Shown: positions 6,659-40,669 of the stretch, piece after piece | Numbering within the stretch: the stretch's first letter is position 1 | Layout: every line of letters begins with the position of its first letter | Assembly: GCA_039648975.1 (NCBI GenBank) | Contig: JBBWZK010000221.1 | Span: 1 to 59,753 of the forward strand | Length of the DNA: 59,753 nt | From: Blastocatellia bacterium | GTDB lineage: Bacteria; Acidobacteriota; Blastocatellia; UBA7656 | Reading direction: 5' to 3' | Program-made: the position numbers and the translations under genes | Notes under the pieces: generated by a model | Told to the model about the DNA's origin: nothing | Databases searched by the model: none | The model's input: the letters and a program-made list of their open reading frames with translations, nothing else

Positions 6659-7635
6659 CAGTACGCGCCCTGCCTTTCAAAAATCCTTCGCGGGTTCTCG
6701 ACTAACATCGTGTGCAGTTGCTCATCGGTGACGCCGCGCGCTTTGAGCGCCGGAATCACGTCGTTGTGGATGTGTAGATAGTGCCAGTTCGGCAAAACCA
6801 CAGGCAATGCCGCTTCGGGCAGCCAGTCGTTGAAGCAGGCCGCATCGTGCGACAACACCATCTTGCCTGCGTGACCGCGCTCGCACATCCGGGCGACGGT
6901 GTTGACGCGATCTTCAAACGGCAGCAGCACGTCGATGCCAAAGCGATCCATGCCGATGGTGGAACCTCTGGCGATCAGTTTTTCCAGGTACTCAATATCG
7001 GTGGTGTCGCCTGAATGACCGATGACGACGCGCGTCAGATCAACGCCTTCTTCCTCGAAGATATGCTGCTGTTCGAGGCCGCGCTCGGTGTGTGCATGGG
7101 TGTGCGTCGAGATAGGCACGCCGGTTTGGCGATGGGCGTGGGCAACGGCGCGCAGCACGCGCTCGACGCCCGGCGTGACGCCCTGCTGATCGGTGGCGCA
7201 TTTCAAAATCGCCGCTTTGACACCCGTGCCGGCGATGCCTTCTGTAATGTCGCGCACAAACATATCGCCCATGAACTCCGGCCCGCCAAGCTCTGTGCCC
7301 GGCCCCTGAAAATGAAAGTACATCGGCACGTCATTGTAGGTGTAGACGCCTGTGGCGACGATGATGTTCAGGTCGATCTCGCGGGCAATGCGCTCAATGC
7401 GCGGGATGTAGCGGCCAAGCCCGATGACCGTGAGGTCGACGATTGAATCGACGCCGCGCGCTTTCAATTCGTTGAGCCGCGCGATGGCCTCGCTGACGCG
7501 CTTCTCCTCATCGCCCCAACCCTCGGGGTAGTTCTGCATGATCTCCGGTGACAGCACGAAGACGTGCTCGTGCATCAGCGTGACACCGAGACTGTCCGTC
7601 GCAATCGGCCCTCGCACGGTATTAATTTGCGGCAT
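6658..7635 (-). CDS. php: Phosphotriesterase-like lactonase (PHP/PLL family)
   Basis: TLMHEH, ILKCATD (carbamylated Lys), STHTH, IGHSGD, GMDRFG, LSHD. From recall it closely resembles M. tuberculosis Php (Rv0230c). Its stop overlaps the ligase ATG. Confidence 0.9.
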   Translation of the reverse strand: MPQINTVRGPIATDSLGVTLMHEHVFVLSPEIMQNYPEGWGDEEKRVSEAIARLNELKARGVDSIVDLTVIGLGRYIPRIERIAREIDLNIIVATGVYTYNDVPMYFHFQGPGTELGGPEFMGDMFVRDITEGIAGTGVKAAILKCATDQQGVTPGVERVLRAVAHAHRQTGVPISTHTHAHTERGLEQQHIFEEEGVDLTRVVIGHSGDTTDIEYLEKLIARGSTIGMDRFGIDVLLPFEDRVNTVARMCERGHAGKMVLSHDAACFNDWLPEAALPVVLPNWHYLHIHNDVIPALKARGVTDEQLHTMLVENPRRIFERQGAY

Positions 7636-7804
7636 ATCCCCTCCACAGGTTCAACATTTCTGATTCGCTATGATGGTCTGTTTGCACAAGCTCTGAGCAG
7701 CGCGATGAGTCTAATATCCGCCGCCGCGCGCGGCAAGCGGAAAGCTCTGATTGAGCATTCATGGCGTGTGGTTTCGTGATAAGATTGGCCTGCGAGGATC
7801 AGCC

Positions 7805-8365
7805 ATGACAACGAAAGTGCAAGCAACTATTGAAGACCTCTACCATATCCCTGAACACGGCAAGGCCGAGCTTGTCAACGGAGAGATTGTCCGTATGTCA
7901 CCAACCGGATTCTGGCCCAGTCGCGCAAGCGGCGAGATTTTCGCGAGCTTGCGTCAACACGAGCGCGCTACTAAATCAGGCTATGCAATCCCTGATAATG
8001 CTGGCTTCATCGTGAACTTGCCGAACCGCAGATCATTCAGTCCTGACGCGGCGTGGCACACCGGCAAGCCGACACGAATGAAGTTTCTCGAAGGTGCGCC
8101 GGTCTTCGCTGTTGAAGTCCGCAGCGAAGAAGATTATGGCGCGCGTGCTGAACGCCGTCTGGCGGCAAAGCGCCAGGATTATTTTGCTGCCGGAACGCTC
8201 TGCGTGTGGGATGTTGACCTGCTCAGTCCTGATGTCATCAAATCCTATCATCACAACGATCCCGAAAATCCTCTCATCTTTCGTCGTGGCGATGTCGCCG
8301 ATGCAGGCGACGCCGTGCCCGGCTGGTCAATGCCGGTTGACGATCTTCTGCCCGAAGACGAATAG
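7805..8365 (+). CDS. Uma2-family (DUF820) endonuclease-like protein
   Basis: KAELVNGEIVRMSP, SPDAAW, AVEVRS, KRQDYFAAG motifs. GAGG precedes ATG7805. Confidence 0.88.
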   Translation: MTTKVQATIEDLYHIPEHGKAELVNGEIVRMSPTGFWPSRASGEIFASLRQHERATKSGYAIPDNAGFIVNLPNRRSFSPDAAWHTGKPTRMKFLEGAPVFAVEVRSEEDYGARAERRLAAKRQDYFAAGTLCVWDVDLLSPDVIKSYHHNDPENPLIFRRGDVADAGDAVPGWSMPVDDLLPEDE

Positions 8366-22699: not shown

Positions 22700-22805
22700 T
22701 GGGGTAATTCCCGACACTTCCATCCTCTTTTCAGGACTGCCAGTCAATCGCAGAAATTCACTGCTGGTCAGGTGCAAAAGCTGCGCAGCTTTAATTAACG
22801 GGTAG
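22699..22805 (+). pseudogene. Possible remnant of a PIN/DUF3368-type toxin 5' end
   Basis: TGATG coupling, then ATG GGG TAA. Adding one G to the G-run gives MGVIPDTSIL, a PIN-like start, but the similarity ends after about 10 codons. Confidence 0.35.
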
Positions 22806-23930
22806 AACCTTTGGGAAAACATCCCAGGCCCAGCGGCCAACAGGCGCGCCGTGCATATCAAACACCTTTGCTCGATAGCGAAATTGATTGCCGTGCTCAT
22901 CCGTTCGTTTCGATTCTCTGAAATCCAAACTGATTGCCGAGATGCCGAGTTCGGGCAAGGTGTGTAGCTCGCTAGGCTCAGAGATACCGTTATGATTGGT
23001 ATCTTGCCACAATCGTAGTGAGGAGAAGATATCATCTCGGCGATCAATGACGCCATCTCCATTGCCGCCATTGCCGATCAGGTCGTACTCGGCAAGCGCT
23101 TTGAAGCCATTCGTCTCCGGCGATTCCCGTTGCGGCGTGAAATTGCCAAACAACTCCAAGCCACTGTCTATCCGGCCATTGCCGTTACGATCTAAAGCCA
23201 GCCAGGCATTGTCAGAGCCGATTGCGGGCCAGGCAATGCGATAGCGTATCCCATTGCCGGTGGGATCGAAAAGAACGCCGCCTGCGGCATCTGTCAGATC
23301 AAAGCCATTACCGCTCACATCGATCAGAATGGGTGAATAGAAACAGCAACATGGCGGATACGCTATCATCCCACTTGGACAGGTAGCGCCATTCGGTGAA
23401 TAGGAGCAATTCGCGCCGGAAGGGCCGATACAGCCGCCTTGAGCCGTTTGACTTTGGACAGCGATGCTCACGTTGACGGTGGTCGGCATAGTTACGGTAG
23501 CGCCAACCGCACTATCGAGTAAGAACTGGCTGTTGATGATGCCTGTCTTGGTATTCTGGCCATTGGTGGTTATAGTGAAGGAAAAATTCGTCGCGGCTCC
23601 GCCACCAGCGAGCATCTTGGTTTTGGTTCGGCTTGGGGTCACCGTGTAGCCGATTTCACTAAAATTAGAGGCTACAATAAAATCCACCTTAGCACTTGCT
23701 GTTCCGTCCGTCGGCACATCCGCCGAAGTCAATAAACTGATGGTGAACGTGACGGAGTCGTTGGAGGCATAGATGGCAGTCTTACTCTGAGAGGAGTTTC
23801 CCAACTTCACCGTCGCAGCATAAAGGGCCGGCTCAGCGGTGGCCCTCCGGCTTCCTGAGGGAGTCAGCGACAGAGAAAATGGGTTTACCAAGATCAGGCA
23901 ACAAGCGAGGAGAAGAATGCGTGGCAACAT
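22791..23930 (-). CDS. Secreted protein: beta-rich N-domain, 6-Cys mini-domain, FrpC self-processing-module-like Ca2+-binding C-domain (paralog 1)
   Basis: GGAGG RBS; signal peptide; [51 protein letters not shown] align by eye with the FrpC SPM. Confidence 0.85.
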
Positions 23931-24115
23931 ATAGCACCTCCTACCAGCATTTTCCAAGAAGCAAGCAATTATCGAAATGCGGACTCAGAGTTTTGTAAGG
24001 AACGCTTCGCAGGTCAAATTTATACGCCTGAATCAATATGCTGTCAAGGAAAAAATATACAAACCTATACCATGTTTCATTACAAATCTATTTCTATAAC
24101 AATGCCTGTGGATAA

Positions 24116-24184: not shown

Positions 24185-27100
24185 CTATGAAACAAACGCG
24201 GCGTGCGAAGGGCGCGGCAATGCACTGCGCCGGTGATCGAGAGACGGAATGCGCCAGGCGATGGCGCGGCGTGCCGCCATCGGCATTGCTTCATTCATCG
24301 CCGCACTCAGCACGTCGCTCAAGCAAGCGCGCATCGCACGACACGATGGCGCGAGCCTGTCGGTTGCGCCTGGCTGCACGGCCAGCAACGTTGCGCCGGC
24401 TGACAAGGGCTGCGGCGCGCTGCTCATGGCCAGCGTACCGGTCGTCGCCGCCATCACCGCATTGGCGATGCTGCCGCCCAGAGGAATGAACGACGTGTCG
24501 GCAATCAGCGGATAGCTGACGGCGCGGCTGCTCGTGTAAAAGACCGTGCCGTTCTTGTAATACTTCACGCCGCCGCCTTCGACACTGATGCGGAAAACGT
24601 CGCCGCTGCGGTAAGCCGTCTCGCCCATGTAGACGTTTGCCTCGCGCACTTCGGCGATGCTGTAATCCGTCAGCTTGATCGCGTAATCAATCCCCGCGAA
24701 ATCGGTTCCCACAGGGTTGCGCGCCAGGCCACAGAAGCGCAGCTTGTTGGTCTCCTGCGCGGTAAACTGTAGATAGCCATCGCCCGACGCCAGCGATTGC
24801 TGCGAGCGCGCTCCGGCATCCGCCGAATCGTCGCGCCCGCCGGTCTTCTGCAAAGTGTTGCCGCTGGCGGTGCAGTTGACCACGCTTGTCCAGACCACAT
24901 TCTGAGTCGTGCCGCCGCCACCACCGCCGCCGCCACCACCGCCGCCGCCACTGCCAGCGCCCGGCGTCGTGAACAACATATCGCCCGATATGGTGAGATT
25001 GCCCGCCGCATCGCGCGACCTGACGCGGAAGTGATATGTGATATTCGCCACAAATCCGCTCAAGCTGGCGCTGTGACTTGTCACGCGCGTCGAGTTGAGC
25101 GCCGTGCTGCTGCCGTAACTGGCGGTCGTGCCATAATCGATCTGTGTGTCGCTGGCTTCGTTGGTTGCCCAGTTGATGGTTGCACCCGCCGCTGTGAGAT
25201 TCGCTGCGGCGACCGCGCTGACGACAGGCGGCGTCGTGTCACCCCCACCACCCGAAGGCGGCGGCGGAATCTTGACGATGAAGGCATCGCGGCGCGACGA
25301 CGAACCCCAGTTGCTGGTGAAGACGGCGAACTGGCCGTCGCGGCTGAGGTTGGCGCGCGGCTCGTCCCAGTAGTCGCGAAACACCGAATGGTGATGCGCG
25401 ACGCGGCGAACGCGCTGCGTGCCGTCAGTCGACACCAGAAGCAATTCATTCTTAAACAGGCCAGAGTTGGGCAGCGACGTGGCAACGAACAGGCTCACCA
25501 GCATCCAGCCATCACCATCGTCGAGCAGCGAAACATGACTACCCTGGCTCCAGTCGTTGCCCAGCGACAGGACGTTGAAAAACTGATGCGGGTTGGCAAG
25601 CTGACGCGAGTTGTAGGCGTTGTTCCAGTTGTCGAACCCGATGACCACGCCGTTGCCGCTATCGTGATGCCCCGGCGAAAAGTCCGGCGCACCATCCGTG
25701 ACATTGGCTACAGAACGGGTTTGCAGGTTGATGATCTTGCATTCAATGGCGCTCGCCGTTCCCTGATTGCCGGTCAGGATGGTCAGATACTGGCCGCTCT
25801 TGTCTACCTGCACTTCATCGACTTCGGTCGTCTGCGCGGTGTAGAGATTGTTCTGCGTGCGCTGCCAGCCGAGATAGCCAATGACATTCCAGTTCGCATC
25901 TTTCAGCGTGAAGCCGAAGCCATTGTCGTCAATCGATTTCGACATCTGATATAGGTTTGCGCCGGGCGCCTGGCCTGTGAAGTCCTTAACCAGCGTGTAG
26001 CTGTTCGCGGCGACGTTATAGGAATAAATCTTCATGCCGGAATGGCAGTAGATGATATCCGGGTCATTGCCGCTCCAGGTGACATCATCGTTCCACGGAT
26101 AGCCGCCGCCCGGCAGCACAGCCCTGAACAAGGCGCGCTTGTTCGAGATGCGAAAGTTCACCGGGTCGAAGTCATACAAGGTCGGGTCGCCGTCGCTGAT
26201 GAAAACCATCAGCCGCGTGCTGTTGCGATTGAGGCTCGGCCAGTAGGAATAGCTATTGTAGTTGCTCGTGCCGTCGCGCTCGTCGGTGATGCGCAAAATG
26301 GTAGTCCCGAATACAGGATCAACGATTGTGCCGCCAGCCGCAGGCAAGGCGGGCGGGGCCGGCTCAGCATAGACGTTCTTATCCGTCTTGAGCGGGTCAA
26401 CGCCGCCGCCACCACCGCCGCCACCGCCGCCTGCCGTCGAGGCAGTCATGAAAGTCTGGTCGCCCGACACCAGAAGGTTTCCGGCAGCGTCGCGTGATTT
26501 GACGCGGAAGTGATACATCGCGCCGGCAGCAAGCCCTGCGAGCGTGGCGCTGTGATTGGTCACCATCGACGTTGAAAGTGTCGTGCTGCTGCCGTAGCTG
26601 GCCGACGTGCCGTATTCAAGCTGCGTGTCGCTGCCTTTGTCTGTCGTCCACGTCACGCTTGCGCCGCTGGTCGTCAGGCCGCCGGTCGAAAGCACAGAGA
26701 TGACTGGCTCTGTGCCGCCACCGCCGCCACCGCCACCGCCTGACGCGCCGGTGGCAAAGGTGTAATCGTTCGAGGTGGCGAGATTGCCTGCCGCATCACG
26801 CGACTTGACGCGATAGTGATATGTAGTGCCGGCTACAAGCCCGCTCAGAGCCATGCTGTGGCCTGTCACTCTGGCGCTATTCGCGGCACTCGCGCCATAA
26901 GCGGTCGTCGCGCCATAGTCGACGGTCGAGTCGCTCGCTTCATCAGTCGTCCAGTTTACGGTAGCCGTGCTCGCCGTCACGCCCGAACTGGCGACGGCGC
27001 TGATGACCGGCGGTATCGTATCAGCGCCGGGATTGACAGTGACTGACGCCCTTGCCGTCGCGCGCGGGTCAGCCGCCAGCGTCGCTCTGACCGTATAGGT

Positions 27101-28678
27101 GCCAGCGGTAGCCGGCGCGGTGTAAAGTCCGGTGCTGGTAATCGTGCCGCCGTCTGTCGACCAGTTGATGCCGGCAGCTTTCGCGCCGGTGATGATCGCC
27201 GTAAATTGCAGGCTCTGGCCGGCATTGATCGATGCCTTTACCGGGCTGATGCTGACGATAGCGCTAAAGCCCGCGCCGTAAACCATGACGTTGTTGACGG
27301 CGGCCATCGTGTTGACCAGCGACGCCGTCACCAGCAGCGGGTATACAGGCCGCGCCTGGCTCGTGTAGATCAGTTCGCCATTTTTATAGTAATGGACGGC
27401 TTTTCCCTCGATTGCGATGCGAAAGACGTTGCCGGATTTGTATTTTACCTTACCCTTAACGACGCCGTTCTCGATGAACAATGCCTTGCGGGCGCTGTTG
27501 AGCTTGATGGCAAAGTTGATGTCGTCTGCGGCGGCGTGAATGGCGTTGCTGTTGCTCAAGCCGCAAACCCGCTCTTTGTCTGCATCAATGGCCGTGAACT
27601 CAACATAGGCATCACCTTCGGCGACGGTTTGTAGCGACGTCGCGCTGGCGTCATCCAGATTGTTGTTGCCGGCGGTCTTCTGCACGCTGTTGTCGCGCGC
27701 CGAGCTGTTGATCAGGTTCGTCCATACCAGCGTCGATGCGACCGTCGGCGGCACCGCAGCAATGAAGACATCCTGGCGCGAGCCACCCGCGCCGGCGCTG
27801 TAGAGAGCGAAGCCCCCGTCGCGCGACAGCCTCTCATGCGGCAAGGTGTTTGCCGCTTCACCCGCGACGCTCAACCAATCGCGCGTCGCGCTCTGCGGCG
27901 AAACCTCCGCGTCGGCGGCGGGCGCAAGCTGCACGGCGTCGCTCTGCGACTCGGTCGCAAAGCGCCATGCGCGCGTCGTCGCGCCATTGATGACGAGCGC
28001 CTGACCCGATTGATTAAAGTCGGCATTTGTAAAATTGGCTACACCTGCCGTCGGGTCGTTCAGGTCGAAAGAGTAGACGCTATCGCTCAGGCGATCCCAG
28101 ACGATGACCGCGCGCCACGCACTCGCGCCGGCTTCGCGCCACGCAAAAGCGAAGCGCTGATCGGCAGCCTGTGGCTTGCTCAAGCGGGCGACTTCGCCGC
28201 GCCCTAGATGGCCGGAAAAATCTTTGATCACGTGGCTGCGGCGCGTCACCATATCGTAAGCGGCGAGGCGTATCGCGCCGTCCGCCGTGTCGAGTCCATA
28301 TAGGGTGTCGGCGTCGGCGGCTGACCACTGGAGCGAATCGGCGTCGAGCGATTCGCGGTCAAACAGCGGCCCTTCTTTCAATAGGTTCATGCTCGCCGCA
28401 TCGAAGCGGTAGAGCGTCGCCGCGCCGTCCAGATTGACGACGAAGCGCGTCGCGTCCGCATTAAAACTTGTCGTTGGAATTACATTTGCGGAAAGCGCGT
28501 CACTTTCGTCGGTGACACGCAGAATGCGCCTGTTGTGCAGGGCATCAACATAGATGCTGCCGGCATGCGGCAAGAAGGCGGATGCGGAATCGTCGCGGCG
28601 CGCACGGCTGGCGATAACCGTCTGTTGCACCATCATCAACGCGACGATCATCCAGACGATGAAAGTCTTGAATCTCAT
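24185..28678 (-). CDS. Large secreted modular protein: degenerate propeller, SPRY/ConA-like module, Ig-like, FN3 x2, His-rich propeller, FN3, SPRY/ConA-like module
   Basis: Signal peptide; three DTxPPVIS/VS...WxTDxxSDxxxxYG...YHxRVxSRDAAGN FN3 repeats; poly-Gly linkers; internal duplications and paralogy to 14299-16242. Confidence 0.85.
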   Translation of the reverse strand: MRFKTFIVWMIVALMMVQQTVIASRARRDDSASAFLPHAGSIYVDALHNRRILRVTDESDALSANVIPTTSFNADATRFVVNLDGAATLYRFDAASMNLLKEGPLFDRESLDADSLQWSAADADTLYGLDTADGAIRLAAYDMVTRRSHVIKDFSGHLGRGEVARLSKPQAADQRFAFAWREAGASAWRAVIVWDRLSDSVYSFDLNDPTAGVANFTNADFNQSGQALVINGATTRAWRFATESQSDAVQLAPAADAEVSPQSATRDWLSVAGEAANTLPHERLSRDGGFALYSAGAGGSRQDVFIAAVPPTVASTLVWTNLINSSARDNSVQKTAGNNNLDDASATSLQTVAEGDAYVEFTAIDADKERVCGLSNSNAIHAAADDINFAIKLNSARKALFIENGVVKGKVKYKSGNVFRIAIEGKAVHYYKNGELIYTSQARPVYPLLVTASLVNTMAAVNNVMVYGAGFSAIVSISPVKASINAGQSLQFTAIITGAKAAGINWSTDGGTITSTGLYTAPATAGTYTVRATLAADPRATARASVTVNPGADTIPPVISAVASSGVTASTATVNWTTDEASDSTVDYGATTAYGASAANSARVTGHSMALSGLVAGTTYHYRVKSRDAAGNLATSNDYTFATGASGGGGGGGGGTEPVISVLSTGGLTTSGASVTWTTDKGSDTQLEYGTSASYGSSTTLSTSMVTNHSATLAGLAAGAMYHFRVKSRDAAGNLLVSGDQTFMTASTAGGGGGGGGGGVDPLKTDKNVYAEPAPPALPAAGGTIVDPVFGTTILRITDERDGTSNYNSYSYWPSLNRNSTRLMVFISDGDPTLYDFDPVNFRISNKRALFRAVLPGGGYPWNDDVTWSGNDPDIIYCHSGMKIYSYNVAANSYTLVKDFTGQAPGANLYQMSKSIDDNGFGFTLKDANWNVIGYLGWQRTQNNLYTAQTTEVDEVQVDKSGQYLTILTGNQGTASAIECKIINLQTRSVANVTDGAPDFSPGHHDSGNGVVIGFDNWNNAYNSRQLANPHQFFNVLSLGNDWSQGSHVSLLDDGDGWMLVSLFVATSLPNSGLFKNELLLVSTDGTQRVRRVAHHHSVFRDYWDEPRANLSRDGQFAVFTSNWGSSSRRDAFIVKIPPPPSGGGGDTTPPVVSAVAAANLTAAGATINWATNEASDTQIDYGTTASYGSSTALNSTRVTSHSASLSGFVANITYHFRVRSRDAAGNLTISGDMLFTTPGAGSGGGGGGGGGGGGGTTQNVVWTSVVNCTASGNTLQKTGGRDDSADAGARSQQSLASGDGYLQFTAQETNKLRFCGLARNPVGTDFAGIDYAIKLTDYSIAEVREANVYMGETAYRSGDVFRISVEGGGVKYYKNGTVFYTSSRAVSYPLIADTSFIPLGGSIANAVMAATTGTLAMSSAPQPLSAGATLLAVQPGATDRLAPSCRAMRACLSDVLSAAMNEAMPMAARRAIAWRIPSLDHRRSALPRPSHAAFVS

Positions 28679-29167
28679 GCTTAACCTCACTCTTCACTTG
28701 TGACTGATTGCCGGATTGAGGGCCGCAACAGTGACGCAAATCTGCGTTTCGGTCTCGTGAGGGGCGAGACGGTTGAAGCGCGCCGACCAGTCGCGCCGCT
28801 TGCGCGAGCGCTTGGCCGCTTCTGGCGCAGACCCGTTTATCGCTTCAGGGTTCGCGCCAAGTGTGCGCGAACCGCCGTCGATAGACCTGGTGAAGCCGCT
28901 TGCGGCTTGCTTGAAACGCAGCCTGTCGTGAGGTTCAGTAATGACGGTGAATGTTGTGGAGTCGTTCTGTTGTTCATCTCATGCCTCATCTTGATCGCTT
29001 GCCTGTTGTGGCATGGAGCTGCTTGATGCAGCCTCTCGTTGCCGTCAACGTTGCGATTTGGGATACGCCACGACCACAGTCGTGGCAAAACGCAATCGGG
29101 GACTGCCTGTGAAGATGGAGTGAGATGAGCCACAGGGAGGGTGCATCTCACTTCGGCAGCCAGACAT

Positions 29168-36310: not shown

Positions 36311-36557
36311 GCCGCGAACTGACTGCCAGCCTTCGCCATACGTCCACACGCGAAGGCTTACTCAAGTGAAATTGCCTGCCGCCGCCAATTTCCACATCGG
36401 GCCGAAGATAATTTGCACAGCGCTTGCCGACAGCGAATTTCGGGGCGCAGTCAACCGATTGCTTTTAGGCAGCGCTTCTACTAGGCTTTTTCAGTTAGGC
36501 TTTTCAGTGGATGGCTAAACGACTCTCCCTTGTCGCTTGATTTATAAGAAGGGCGTA

Positions 36558-38193
36558 GTGAGCACCAGAGTTTTTCAGTTTGCTGCGTTGCTGATATTCG
36601 CAGTCTTATTCTTCGCGTTTCAATCAACCGCCAGGGTTAGCCTTGCGGGCTCGCCAGATCTCCAGTACGTCGGCAATCGCGCCTGTGCAGCTTGTCACCT
36701 GTCCATCTATCAAAGTTATTCCAGGACACCGATGGCATTGACCAGCGGCCCCGCCGGCAACAACCTTGTCGAAGGCTCATTTGAACACAGCCTTTCGGCA
36801 ATGCGTTATCGTGTGTACTCCAAAGACGGCAAAGCATTGCTAAGCTATCAACGCACGGACGGGCCGCCGATTCGCGGTATACAAGAGTTGCAATTTTTCG
36901 TCGGATCGGGGCGCAGGGGTCGCAGTTATCTATTCAGCGCTGATCATTTTCTCTATCAGTCGCCAGCCAGTTACTATGCGCAAAAGAAACGCTGGGATAT
37001 GTCGCCCGGCTACGAATCATCCCGTGAGATGCCCTTCAATCGTGCGATAGAGTCGAGTTGTCTGGCCTGTCATGCCAGTCAGATACGCGCCATCAGCGGC
37101 ACCGAAAATCGCTATGAGGCAGTGCCTTTCGCTCAGGATGGCATTGGCTGCGAACGCTGTCATGGGCAGCGAGCACAACAAAGGCAAGTCGCCGATGATC
37201 AATCCGGCCAAACTCGACGCGGCGCGGCGCGATTCGGTATGTGCGCAATGTCACCTGTCAGGCGAGGCGCGCATTAACCAGCCGGGCAAGAACGCCGGCA
37301 TGTTTCGACCCGGCGAACTGCTCGCCGATTATGTTCTGGATTACATTTATGAAGGCGATTTTAATTATGCCTATAAAGCAATCGGCCACGTCGAAGCGAT
37401 GGCCAGTAGCCGCTGTAAGCTTCAATCCGGCGACCGTATGTCTTGCCTGAGTTGTCACGATCCGCATACCGTCCCGCCCGCCGAAGAGAAGGCGGCTTAT
37501 TTTCGTGAGAAGTGTCTGGCGTGCCATCTGCAACAGAAAGTTTCGGTCGAGCTCAAGCAACATTTCGATAATCGCTATGACTGTCGTAGCTGTCATATGC
37601 CAGCCACGCCCGGCCTGAGCATTGGCCATACGATGCTGACGGATCATCGCATCTTGCGTAAGCCAATCACAGGCGGATCAGGCCAAAAGCCTGCGACCCG
37701 TTTGATACAATTCGGCGCAAAGCTGGCTGATAGACGCGGGCTGGGATTGGCTTATGCCGAACTCGCGGCACGCGACAACCAGCCGTTCTACGCCGCTGAA
37801 GCCCTGCGCCTTTTGACCGAAGCCTTGCCTTCGTGCGCCAAAGACGCCGAGGTGCTGACCCGTTTAGCCTACCTGCACCAGACGAAAGGCGAAACGGAAC
37901 AGGCCGCCGCACTATATGAAAGGGCCTTGCAGAGCGACCCTCATAAAACTGCGGCGCAGGTTAATCTCGGCGTGCTGTATGCACAGCGCGGGCGCGTTGA
38001 TCGCGCCATCGAGCTATGGCGCAACGCCCTGGCCAGCAATCCTGGCTTGAGTGAGGCGAGTATCAATCTTGCCATCGCGCTTACAGCCGAAGACGATAAG
38101 CCGGAAGCGCGCGATGTGCTGGTCAAAGCGTTGCGCTTCGATCCTGATTCAAGCGTTGAACTAAAGTTATTGCACGACCTGGGCGATCAGTGA
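36558..38193 (+). pseudogene. Multiheme cytochrome c (7 CxxCH) with C-terminal TPRs, frameshifted near 37167
   Basis: The first ORF has CAACH, CLACH, CERCH; the second has CAQCH, CLSCH, CLACH, CRSCH and TPR repeats. The frame switches at CATGGGCAGCGAGCAC. Confidence 0.8.
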
Positions 38194-38271
38194 ACCACTG
38201 CTTATGTAGCCAAAACTAACAAAGCGGCCCCGATTGGAGCCGCCTCTTTGTCAGTTAATGATTCAAAGGAA

Positions 38272-39405
38272 CTATTGCGCGACTAAGAAGACATCCCAGG
38301 CCCAGCGGTCAACCTGTGCGTTACGAGAATCAAAGACTCTAGCCCGGTACTTAAACTGATTGCCGTACTGATCTGTACGCCTCGATTCTCGATAATCGAG
38401 ATCAATTGCATAAACGTTTAATGATGGCAGGGTATGTAACTCATTCATCTCTGAAATGCCGTTGTGGTTGGTATCCTGCCATAGCCGCAAGCTGGAGAAG
38501 ATGGAATCACGAGGCCCTATCCTTCCGTCACCATTGCCACCATTTTCGGGTTTGTCATATTCAGCCAGAGCAATAAAGCCATTACGATTTTCAGATTGCG
38601 GTTGTTGGGTAAAGTTGCCAAACAACTCCAGGCCACTATCAATCGTTCCATTACCGTTGCGGTCGAGTGCCAGCCACGCATCATCTGAACTAGCAGTTGT
38701 CCAGGCAACAGAAAATAGAGTGCCTGTGCCTGCCGGATCAAAACGCACCCCCGCAGTTGCATTCGTGAAGCTAAAGCCATCGCCATTGATGTCTATGATA
38801 ATCGGTGAGTAAAAACAACAGCACGGCGGATATGAAATCGTCCCTGAAGGACAAGTGATGCCGTTTGAAGAATAAAAACAGTTGGCCCCGCTTGGCCCAA
38901 AACAGCTCGTACCGCCTCCGCCAATAGGGCAAGTCCCATAAGATGATGCTATCTGGGAACCGCTATTTTGACAAAAATTCCAAGAGGTAACACCAGGGTC
39001 GCAAATAAGAAGGCTAGTAGTTATTTGATAAGTTACTGTTTGTACCCAACTCGTTGAAGTGACTACGGGAGTATTAAACATTGGCCAGCATTTCGTAGTC
39101 GCCGTAGAGTAATCGCTGCACCTAAACGAACAACCAAACTGGCCATCATTCCAATTTCCCAGAGCAACGTCTTCACTCTTATTTGCCCAAGTGATGGTCT
39201 TAACCTCGCTTTTTTCTATAGAACACATACCGCCAAAGGAATGACATGGATCACATAAATCGCAAACCGAAGTTGATAGGACCTCTCCTGGACATCCTGT
39301 CCTATAAACAGTACCGTCAGGATCACAATGACCTGCATGAGCCATCGGAATCTGTGATAGTAATAGGCCTATCAATATCCACAAGCAGAGTAGTTCTTTT
39401 TTCAT
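38272..39405 (-). CDS. Secreted Cys-rich protein with 6-Cys mini-domain and FrpC SPM-like C-domain (paralog 2)
   Basis: Signal peptide; 18 Cys in the mature N-terminal half; [43 protein letters not shown]. Confidence 0.85.
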
Positions 39406-39430
39406 GGTTATTACTCTTTTAGGGATTTTG

Positions 39431-40198
39431 TTATTGAGTACGTTTTAAAGACTTTAGGATTGCCAGATTTTCTTTTTCGTACTTGTTTACAATATATGAT
39501 AGTACTTGACGAGCAACATCCTCTCCCTTTTCCTGTTCAATTTGTTCAAGTTGTTTGAGTTTATCAAGAGCCAATTCTCTTGCATTATGAAGTCCTACAC
39601 GGAACTCCAACGACCTCCCTTCTTCTTCTTCTGGAAGCTGTTCGAGCTTAAGCTTAATCGCTTCTTGTTTTTGCATTAATCTCATATTTTTCGGGGTGAC
39701 TAATGCATCACGAAAGAGGGGCAGAATGCGTGCTATTTGTGCTTGTGTTCCTGCGCGAGTATCAAATATTTGTCTGACGAACTTAGATTCGCCATCCGAT
39801 GTTCCATCTTCATAAACAACTGCTAGAATGGTAATTCCTTTTTCAGGGCTTGTAGGTGACGGTAAACCACATTGTTCTATTCCCGTGGCCCCAGGAGCTA
39901 TTACTTTTTCAGTATCAATCCACTCGGATCTATAGTTAACTTCTGAAGAAGACAAGGAAATTGCTGTTATGGCCTTGTCCGAATCATTCCTTAATAATAG
40001 AAGAACATTATATTTCTGTACTTTCACATCAACGATGGTTAAATTCGGGACTAAGCTTATTACAGGGAAATTAACTTGCTTCTTAGAAGGGCTCGCTTTG
40101 AAGATGCCAAGTTTAGAAGACGACAAGAATATGAATAGACAAACACAAGAAAAAACCAGGAAATAAGGTTTCTGAGCGATTGCTTTGATTTTCTTCAT
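39431..40198 (-). CDS. Membrane-anchored/exported hypothetical protein, upstream partner of paralog 2
   Basis: AGGAG RBS before ATG40198; N-terminal hydrophobic helix; beta-rich then helical domain; 25-bp gap to the downstream gene; AT-rich. Confidence 0.75.
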
Positions 40199-40669
40199 AA
40201 GAACTTCTCCTGAATAACAATACGCGCAGTAGAGTCCCATTCGCAGTATGAGGAAGAGCTGGAACAACGCGTTTATATCACCGTTAAAAACTTGGGGCAA
40301 GAAAATTTGATGTAGCATATAACATTTTTTTGTTAGGTTATTCTCTTATCCGTACATTGCAAGCAGACATGATAAAAGCTTTCCAAAATGAAGGGCTTAT
40401 GTTTTAGTGATATTGCACACCGCATATTGGACAGCTAGACCTACTCTGCCTGGTCTTCTGCCGTATCTGCTGATCGCACTCGTGGCAGGCGCTGGGCTCA
40501 GGCAAGCCTCACAAGCACGTTCAGATAGGATATGGTTTAACAGTAAAGGCATCTTCCTTGACGATGGGGCGCTCGAACTCTAAACTGAAATTCACAGGCA
40601 AAACGTAGTAAAACTGATAACCAGACCGCGCATACAGACGCGCCAACCACACGGATGATTGAAAAAACT

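Follow-up and report, generated by a model that had tools for sequence, protein, structure and literature searches.

The window analysed here is the whole of contig JBBWZK010000221.1 of Blastocatellia bacterium (59,753 nt; contig C237 of draft genome G000, 6.9 Mb, 57.7% GC). It carries a cassette of two genes, which encode a predicted membrane-anchored protein (the partner) and, downstream of it, a Cys-rich exported protein (the cargo) whose C-terminus is homologous to FrpC's self-processing module (SPM). Related genomes keep the two genes together, and the partner follows the N-terminal domain (N-domain) of the cargo, here called type A, and not the SPM. We see about an even chance that the two genes encode one allelic form of a polymorphic effector, exported by Sec, together with its periplasm-facing protective (immunity-like) partner.

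The cassette consists of two open reading frames (ORFs) between a multihaem cytochrome/TPR gene and the divergent acnA. The earlier note had described them as lying on one strand, 25 bp apart, and both the coordinates and the spacing, which is exactly 25 bp, are right. The features are as follows (aa, amino acids; AF2, AlphaFold2 model; Ig, immunoglobulin; pI, isoelectric point).

39431..40198, minus strand: partner gene, 255 aa; AF2 mean pLDDT 86
40115..40174, minus strand: partner residues 9-28, hydrophobic helix (signal anchor); a helix in AF2, no lipobox
39791..40063, minus strand: partner residues 46-136, Ig-like beta-sandwich (AF2); conserved motifs include LRNDSxKxITA
39446..39787, minus strand: partner residues 138-251, four long helices (AF2); basic, pI 9.4
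39406..39430, minus strand: intergenic gap, 25 bp, no terminator
38272..39405, minus strand: cargo gene, 377 aa plus stop; AF2 mean pLDDT 84.7
39334..39405, minus strand: cargo residues 1-24, Sec-type signal peptide as read from the sequence (MKKE, hydrophobic core, AHA/G)
38926..39333, minus strand: cargo residues 25-160, type-A N-domain, all-beta and disulfide-rich; AF2 pLDDT about 90
38809..38925, minus strand: cargo residues 161-199, Gly-rich linker and Cys-rich cap (C168, C176, C185, C195-197), preceding the junction
38803..38808, minus strand: junction Ser200-Pro201, aligned with FrpC Asp414-Pro415 (6sjw)
38275..38805, minus strand: cargo residues 201-377, SPM domain (Pfam PF26745); no residues follow it

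We searched 61 related whole genomes with a partner profile and took E<=1e-15 as the threshold for a strong hit; many of the comparison loci are on contigs of metagenome-assembled genomes (MAGs) or metagenomes. The profile has matches in 22 of the 61 genomes. Their distribution is patchy, and one of the four other genomes of the same genus is positive. Downstream of 26 of the 31 strong partner homologues in these 22 genomes a same-strand SPM domain begins at a distance of 540-2,290 nt (within 1,430 nt for 25 of them), where 0.04 would be expected by chance. Partner homologues are thus linked to SPM genes in other genomes, which was the check that the earlier note had proposed. The adjacency of partner and cargo spans at least 14 genera, and the order partner then cargo is kept in all eight close cassettes from metagenomes and genomes, one of which lies beside acnA. 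An initial contig scan with the partner profile had found six loci, and the distant ones (L003-L007) were not linked to an SPM within the available flanks. The impression of weak linkage given by that scan was overturned by the profile search of whole genomes.

The partner is specific to one kind of cargo. All but one of the 28 type-A N-domain profile hits directly follow a partner of the type found here (A1), whereas this partner type is upstream of only 27 of the 101 SPM genes in these genomes. At two loci in two genomes (L032 and L033) the partner precedes a type-A N-domain with a different, non-SPM Cys-rich tail, and the partner of L005 and L006 is followed by a type-A domain that is truncated and lacks an SPM. 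The 27/28 pairing, which includes the two cargos with non-SPM tails, means that the partner belongs with the N-domain and not with the SPM.

The same pattern is seen among the paralogs of this genome, where 11 paralogs with unrelated N-domains share an SPM that is 59-74% identical to that of the cargo. The type of partner switches with the type of N-domain: a type-2 partner is present at C457 and C328, a type-3 partner is present at C451 and, at C244, forms a fusion with the cargo, the metalloprotease-SPM gene at C17 is preceded by that of an anchored protein of 291 aa (which is kept before the same cargo type in L002), and a 230-aa anchored protein is present at C424. At C437 the gene directly upstream of a 651-aa Cys-rich SPM protein (7157-8245, plus strand) encodes a protein that has a DsbA-like thioredoxin fold (FSDFQCPYCKQ) and whose N-terminal part resembles SurA, so that some cargos may bring their own disulfide oxidoreductase. 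Comparison of the partner types by hhalign gave E=1e-3 between the partner and type 2 and nothing to type 3, which is suggestive at best of a common origin of all partner types. Paralog 1 (22791-23957) was described in the earlier note as lacking such a partner upstream and as an orphan module. The first statement is correct; the second holds for this partner type only, because 10 of the 11 paralogs have some exported or anchored gene upstream or fused to them. Directly upstream of paralog 1 on the same strand is a gene for a secreted protein of 1501 aa that contains poly-Gly linkers and repeats resembling fibronectin III (24185-28690, minus strand).

The two proteins also diverge together. 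Averaged over pairs of 16 intact cassettes, partners are 24% identical and N-domains 23%, compared with 64% for the SPM, and the distances of the partner are correlated with those of the N-domain (Mantel r=0.58, p=2e-4; partial r=0.54 when controlling for the SPM). At the locus of a relative that is syntenic beside acnA, identity falls from 89.5% in AcnA to 67% in the partner, 66% in the SPM and 51% in the N-domain. There are 3-7 divergent cassettes per genome.

Decay of the cassettes is asymmetric. Of 31 cassettes, about 11 have a cargo gene broken by a frameshift, a stop, an insertion or a rearrangement (L001, L002, L008, L009, L012, L013, L015, L017, L019, L023 and G008:C41, and possibly L011), and one has an interrupted partner (P about 0.02 given the gene lengths). 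Additionally, there are orphan partners (L035-L037), including one in a genome without any SPM gene (G019). Two loci show rearranged remnants. A 121-aa ORF at C310:22054-22419 (plus strand) starts with an AraC-type helix-turn-helix (HTH) like those near the SPM loci of C457 and C328 and ends with the last ~26 residues of an SPM; from its sequence, it looks like a deletion or recombination scar that joined a cassette regulator to the 3' end of an SPM gene. The locus L002:6789-12005, from a Blastocatellia MAG, begins with an intact A1 partner, a type-A cargo cut after ~69 homologous residues and a 251-aa exported protein. Its second half contains a type-3-like partner, a lone 130-aa C-terminal SPM fragment, a 265-aa anchored protein and, last, a metalloprotease-SPM gene that is intact. 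Such a scrambled arrangement suggests that modules are shuffled by recombination in conserved SPM DNA.

The partner was called membrane-anchored in the earlier note, and this is supported by prediction: there is a single strongly hydrophobic N-terminal segment (the most hydrophobic 19-mer is residues 14-32, Kyte-Doolittle 2.03), which is modelled as a helix and joined by a flexible linker to the Ig-like sandwich. The Ig-like and helical domains are predicted from the model to face the periplasm, tethered in the inner membrane. The helical part is basic, in contrast to the acidic N-domain of the cargo (pI 4.5). None of the 25 close homologues of the partner is annotated. No Pfam, NCBIfam or PDB relative was found, a sequence search of the PDB being empty at E<=10, and a Foldseek search with the model gave generic Ig-like matches only (E>=1.5e-3), FrpD not being among them. 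The Ig-like and helical module of the partner is also contained in an exported family of ~400-430 aa (L038:1149-2348, minus strand; L039:626-1834, plus strand; L040:345-1625, plus strand), where the module, with its motif VVF.DGSYEGD, sits behind an additional N-terminal domain. This family, which Pfam does not match, may represent a housekeeping protein from which the partner arose.

In the cargo, the signal peptide contains the hydrophobic 19-mer (residues 5-23) and an AF2 helix at residues 2-17. The type-A N-domain has conserved hallmarks in the alignments (K..W.I.W, G.G.C, CWPxFxxP and W.Q) and no sequence match in Pfam, NCBIfam or the PDB and no Foldseek match in the PDB or BFVD. The linker that follows it is poorly modelled at residues 162-172 (AF2 pLDDT <50). 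The cargo was reported to have 12 Cys; the actual number is 19, of which 18 lie past the signal peptide, and all of them are N-terminal to the SPM, upstream of residue 198. Scans of the cargo, the partner, nine other N-domains or partners of the paralogs and the neighbouring genes against Pfam and NCBIfam gave only weak TPR matches.

The description of the cargo as SPM-like, made from sequence in the earlier note, proved correct. Its C-terminal 177 residues are a true homologue of the FrpC module in sequence and in fold: they match PDB 6sjw_A (phmmer E=6.3e-25; profile E=1.9e-33), and the AF2 model of the cargo matches 6sjw and 6sjx over 181 columns (Foldseek E=2.8e-12, target TM 0.77). The PF26745:SPM assignment is a precomputed annotation, on the cargo and on its relatives. 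In the 6sjw alignment four EF-hand-like Ca2+ sites are kept (D205/N207/D209/G210 with D242; D248-E260; N289-D300; and D311-E322), as are the Trp residues W235 and W309, which correspond to the T-shaped pair W451 and W519 of FrpC. These residues are mostly invariant among 43 homologues. The position of FrpC D478, a ligand of a transient fifth Ca2+ site where D478N is tolerated in FrpC, is Asn in the cargo. The two proteins differ in their setting. The cargo has an N-terminal Sec signal and no type I secretion signal, no RTX repeats or other Pfam domains were found in it, and its SPM is at the extreme C-terminus behind a Cys-rich cap, whereas that of FrpC is an internal module. The family to which this SPM belongs is large (20,352 clusters at 50% identity, E<=1e-3); in nearly all of the 150 cluster representatives listed the SPM is at the extreme C-terminus, and the N-terminal parts vary widely in length.

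They also differ at the junction. There is no Asp-Pro scissile bond at the first residue of the cargo module, where the junction is Ser-Pro. The residue before the junction Pro is Ser in 200 of 232 homologues, Thr in 27, Cys in 4, Arg in 1 and Asp in none, and Ser-Pro is found in all 11 SPM paralogs of this genome. In the set of 43 homologues every junction is Ser-, Thr- or Cys-Pro and the Pro is invariant. Cleavage of FrpC is abolished by D414A (PMC7846742). Since Ser replaces this essential Asp414, Asp-anhydride chemistry is excluded for the cargo SPM. The exclusive use of Ser, Thr and Cys suggests, on sequence grounds, a nucleophile-based N-to-O or N-to-S acyl shift at the junction, and self-cleavage of the cargo would be assumed by analogy with FrpC. 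Tyr precedes the junction Ser in the cargo (residues 199-200, 38806-38811; FYS/P), and other paralogs have Ser, Thr, Pro or Ile there. In FrpC, Tyr natively precedes Asp-Pro and is among the residues that give the fastest cleavage (PMC7846742).

The earlier note had inferred an effector with a chaperone or immunity partner. The pairing stands, on the evidence of linkage, tracking of the N-domain and co-diversification; for the role of the partner we can give only degrees of belief, evenly balanced for immunity and well below that for a chaperone. The reading of effector and protective partner rests on the linkage, its specificity, the parallel fast divergence, the multi-copy arsenal, the orphan partners and the asymmetric decay. 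It is also consistent with the predicted location, because a periplasm-facing partner in the inner membrane is placed where a Sec-exported effector would need neutralising. The cargo would be translocated by Sec and then oxidised and folded in the periplasm, and the SPM would fold upon Ca2+ binding. The membrane-tethered partner would bind the N-domain and neutralise it in the producing cell, in the manner of an immunity protein or an inhibitor, and the N-domain, once released, would act on other cells or on an extracytoplasmic target.

Such an arrangement resembles the polymorphic toxin-immunity systems (the contact-dependent inhibition (CDI) pair CdiA-CT/CdiI, Rhs, and colicin M with Cmi-type immunity, which faces the periplasm) in having a variable domain on a conserved module, an adjacent small cognate gene and co-diversification of the two. 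Several divergent copies per genome, orphan partners, broken effectors, recombination remnants and atypical composition are further likenesses. It differs from them in its mirror-image layout, with the variable domain N-terminal, the constant module C-terminal and the partner upstream, and in combining Sec export with no dedicated secretion system and no known toxin or immunity fold; toxicity of the cargo would be an argument by analogy. A number of points weigh against an effector with a protective partner. Neither protein shows a recognisable toxin, enzyme or immunity family (in Pfam, in NCBIfam, by sequence search of the PDB, or by Foldseek against the PDB and BFVD), no conserved catalytic-type residues are seen in alignments of the type-A N-domain, and there are no dedicated secretion genes nearby. 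Immunity genes are usually downstream of toxins, whereas the partner is upstream. The bias of disruption towards the cargo is modest (P about 0.02), and some of the breaks are possibly assembly errors in metagenome contigs. The ~400-430-aa relatives of the partner module occur in about ten of the 22 related genomes and none of them adjoins an SPM gene. Finally, a membrane-tethered private foldase would show the same linkage and co-variation.

That foldase is the main rival. On this reading the partner would serve the 18-Cys cargo as its own Lif-like foldase, holdase or export adaptor, tethered to the membrane in the periplasm, and would help it to fold or to remain competent for secretion; the cargo would be secreted without being toxic, for example as an adhesin, a binding protein or a nutrient-acquisition factor. 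The predicted architecture agrees with that of Lif, the lipase-specific foldases, in having an N-terminal anchor and a periplasmic domain, in an operon with one cognate exported protein. Lif and AprI/Inh, the latter being periplasmic inhibitors of secreted proteases, likewise act before secretion on the one exported protein with which they are encoded, and neither is homologous to the partner. The cargo is highly disulfide-rich, the C437 paralog has a DsbA-like oxidoreductase gene upstream instead, some SPM proteins have HExxH metalloprotease N-domains and could be ordinary exoenzymes, and searches of Pfam, NCBIfam and Foldseek found no toxin signature. However, a chaperone and its client would not usually diverge in parallel and down to an identity of ~24% within one bacterial family, and the divergence is much faster than that of Lif or AprI/Inh. 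Intact partners survive beside broken cargos and as orphans, even where the genome has no SPM gene, and the partner has no similarity to Lif or to other chaperone families (Pfam, PDB, Foldseek). We therefore consider a foldase unlikely. Lower still is the probability that the partner is a surface or membrane docking receptor for the N-domain, as the outer-membrane lipoprotein FrpD is for FrpC, and that it would keep the N-domain on the producing cell after release, for use in adhesion or kin recognition. The gene order is that of frpD-frpC, with the partner directly upstream of and co-oriented with the SPM protein and expected to recognise a part N-terminal to the SPM, as the lipoprotein FrpD docks the N-terminal part of FrpC (PMC5233953). 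Quick co-diversification of ligand and receptor is also typical of self-recognition systems. The partner, however, has no FrpD similarity in sequence or fold, carries a signal anchor and no lipoprotein signal, and is predicted to be in the inner membrane and not surface-exposed. Nor can Ser-Pro yield the Asp anhydride for the covalent link step, so that no covalent link is possible. Furthermore, the pairing here follows the N-domain even when the SPM is absent, and docking leaves the decay of the cargo with retention of the partner unexplained.

Two further explanations have very little probability. The genes might be adjacent yet functionally unrelated, the AT-rich patch being a horizontally acquired islet. 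The cassette is indeed AT-richer than its surroundings, as the earlier note had seen (partner 38.4% GC and cargo 46.3%, compared with 60.1% for acnA, 57% for the window and 58% for the 1.5-10 kb flanks), but the adjacency is conserved in 26/31 and 27/28 cases over the genera given above, the gaps are operon-tight and the two genes show correlated divergence, so we hold unrelated neighbours to be highly improbable. The other explanation concerns the three Cys-Asp-Pro motifs, which the earlier note speculated to be alternative SPM cleavage sites and which would cut the cargo into several fragments. All three are present in this one protein (residues 27-29, 51-53 and 135-137), a fourth Asp-Pro lies inside the SPM (residues 223-224), and Asp-Pro is the bond cut by the FrpC SPM (PMC7078468). 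Of the 43 homologues, however, just 2, 6 and at most 1 share the respective motifs, Asp-Pro is entirely missing upstream of the junction in 19 of the 43, and C12, the closest paralog, retains a single Asp-Pro of the three and no Cys-Asp-Pro motif. In addition, the scissile Pro of FrpC is the first residue of the folded module and is held against the module's own beta-strands (PMC7078468), whereas the motifs sit 65-175 residues off, within a separately folded domain (AF2). Because the motifs are not conserved, their use as cleavage sites is scarcely credible.

The locus is consistent with expression of the two genes as an operon. The 25-bp gap without a terminator suggests that partner and cargo are co-transcribed, and in 20 related cassettes the gap ranges from a 4-nt overlap to 117 nt. 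The start of the partner is ATG 40198, which has AGGAG 8 nt upstream and is shared by all homologues; a longer partner ORF up to 40318 was rejected on these grounds. Two flanking features complete the unit.

40199..40654, strand not assigned: intergenic region shared with divergent acnA, presumed to hold the cassette promoter
38221..38246, minus strand: terminator-like hairpin, 11 pairs (7 G-C), 26 nt past the cargo stop, by consensus match only

A strong sigma-70 consensus was looked for on the minus strand of 40199..40654 and was not found. Every cassette of this genome is AT-rich relative to its flanks, and recent horizontal transfer was rejected as the sole cause of the AT-richness because the syntenic locus beside acnA is present in a relative. 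Four other SPM loci share a set of genes upstream (C12:6733-7749, C457:23201-25413, C328:13989-16344 and C17:37494-38687), which consists of a TPR-like protein of ~340-400 aa, a ~170-aa protein of no family and a small AraC-type HTH protein. This set may be a dedicated regulatory module and it is absent from the cassette in the window. On the other side of the cassette, the overlapping ORFs 36537-37277 and 37072-38193 (36537-38193, plus strand) are in different frames and both have CxxCH haem-binding motifs, the second with TPR-like repeats at its end. The pair resembles a single multihaem cytochrome gene that was split by a frameshift or an assembly error.

The cassette is a variation on known kinds, the SPM domain, which is itself already known, and the polymorphic effector-partner cassettes. 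In the searchable literature (SPM with Acidobacteria; PF26745) we found neither the Sec-dependent, non-RTX branch of SPM proteins with Ser/Thr/Cys-Pro junctions nor its partner genes. To our knowledge, the SPM has so far been studied only in a few pathogens, as an internal module of their RTX proteins, and as NeissLock, a tool for protein engineering. Here it is the constant C-terminal tail of a huge family of Sec-exported proteins of soil bacteria, in which other residues stand in place of the essential Asp and the N-terminal domains can be exchanged. At least one type of cargo has a dedicated, co-evolving, membrane-anchored partner, which turns hypothetical proteins into a testable two-component system, of either effector and immunity protein or client and foldase.

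More broadly, and with more doubt than conviction, we suggest that SPM proteins with a Ser/Thr/Cys-Pro junction, together with the anchored partners encoded upstream of them, may make up a very large and so far undescribed class of polymorphic effector-immunity systems exported by Sec in the Acidobacteriota. It would be a mirror image of CDI and Rhs, with a variable N-terminal toxin, an immunity gene 5' of it, and a Ca2+-triggered C-terminal module that would release or activate the effector outside the cytoplasm by a nucleophile-based variant of the FrpC chemistry. If this were true, the type-A N-domain would represent a new fold for toxins that are not enzymes, and the Ig-plus-helical partner a new one for immunity proteins. 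The Acidobacteriota are a dominant and poorly understood soil phylum. If the partner is protective, the cassettes would be a new arsenal for interbacterial competition in this phylum and would provide two new protein folds with defined binding partners, and the SPM variants could widen the protein-ligation toolbox.

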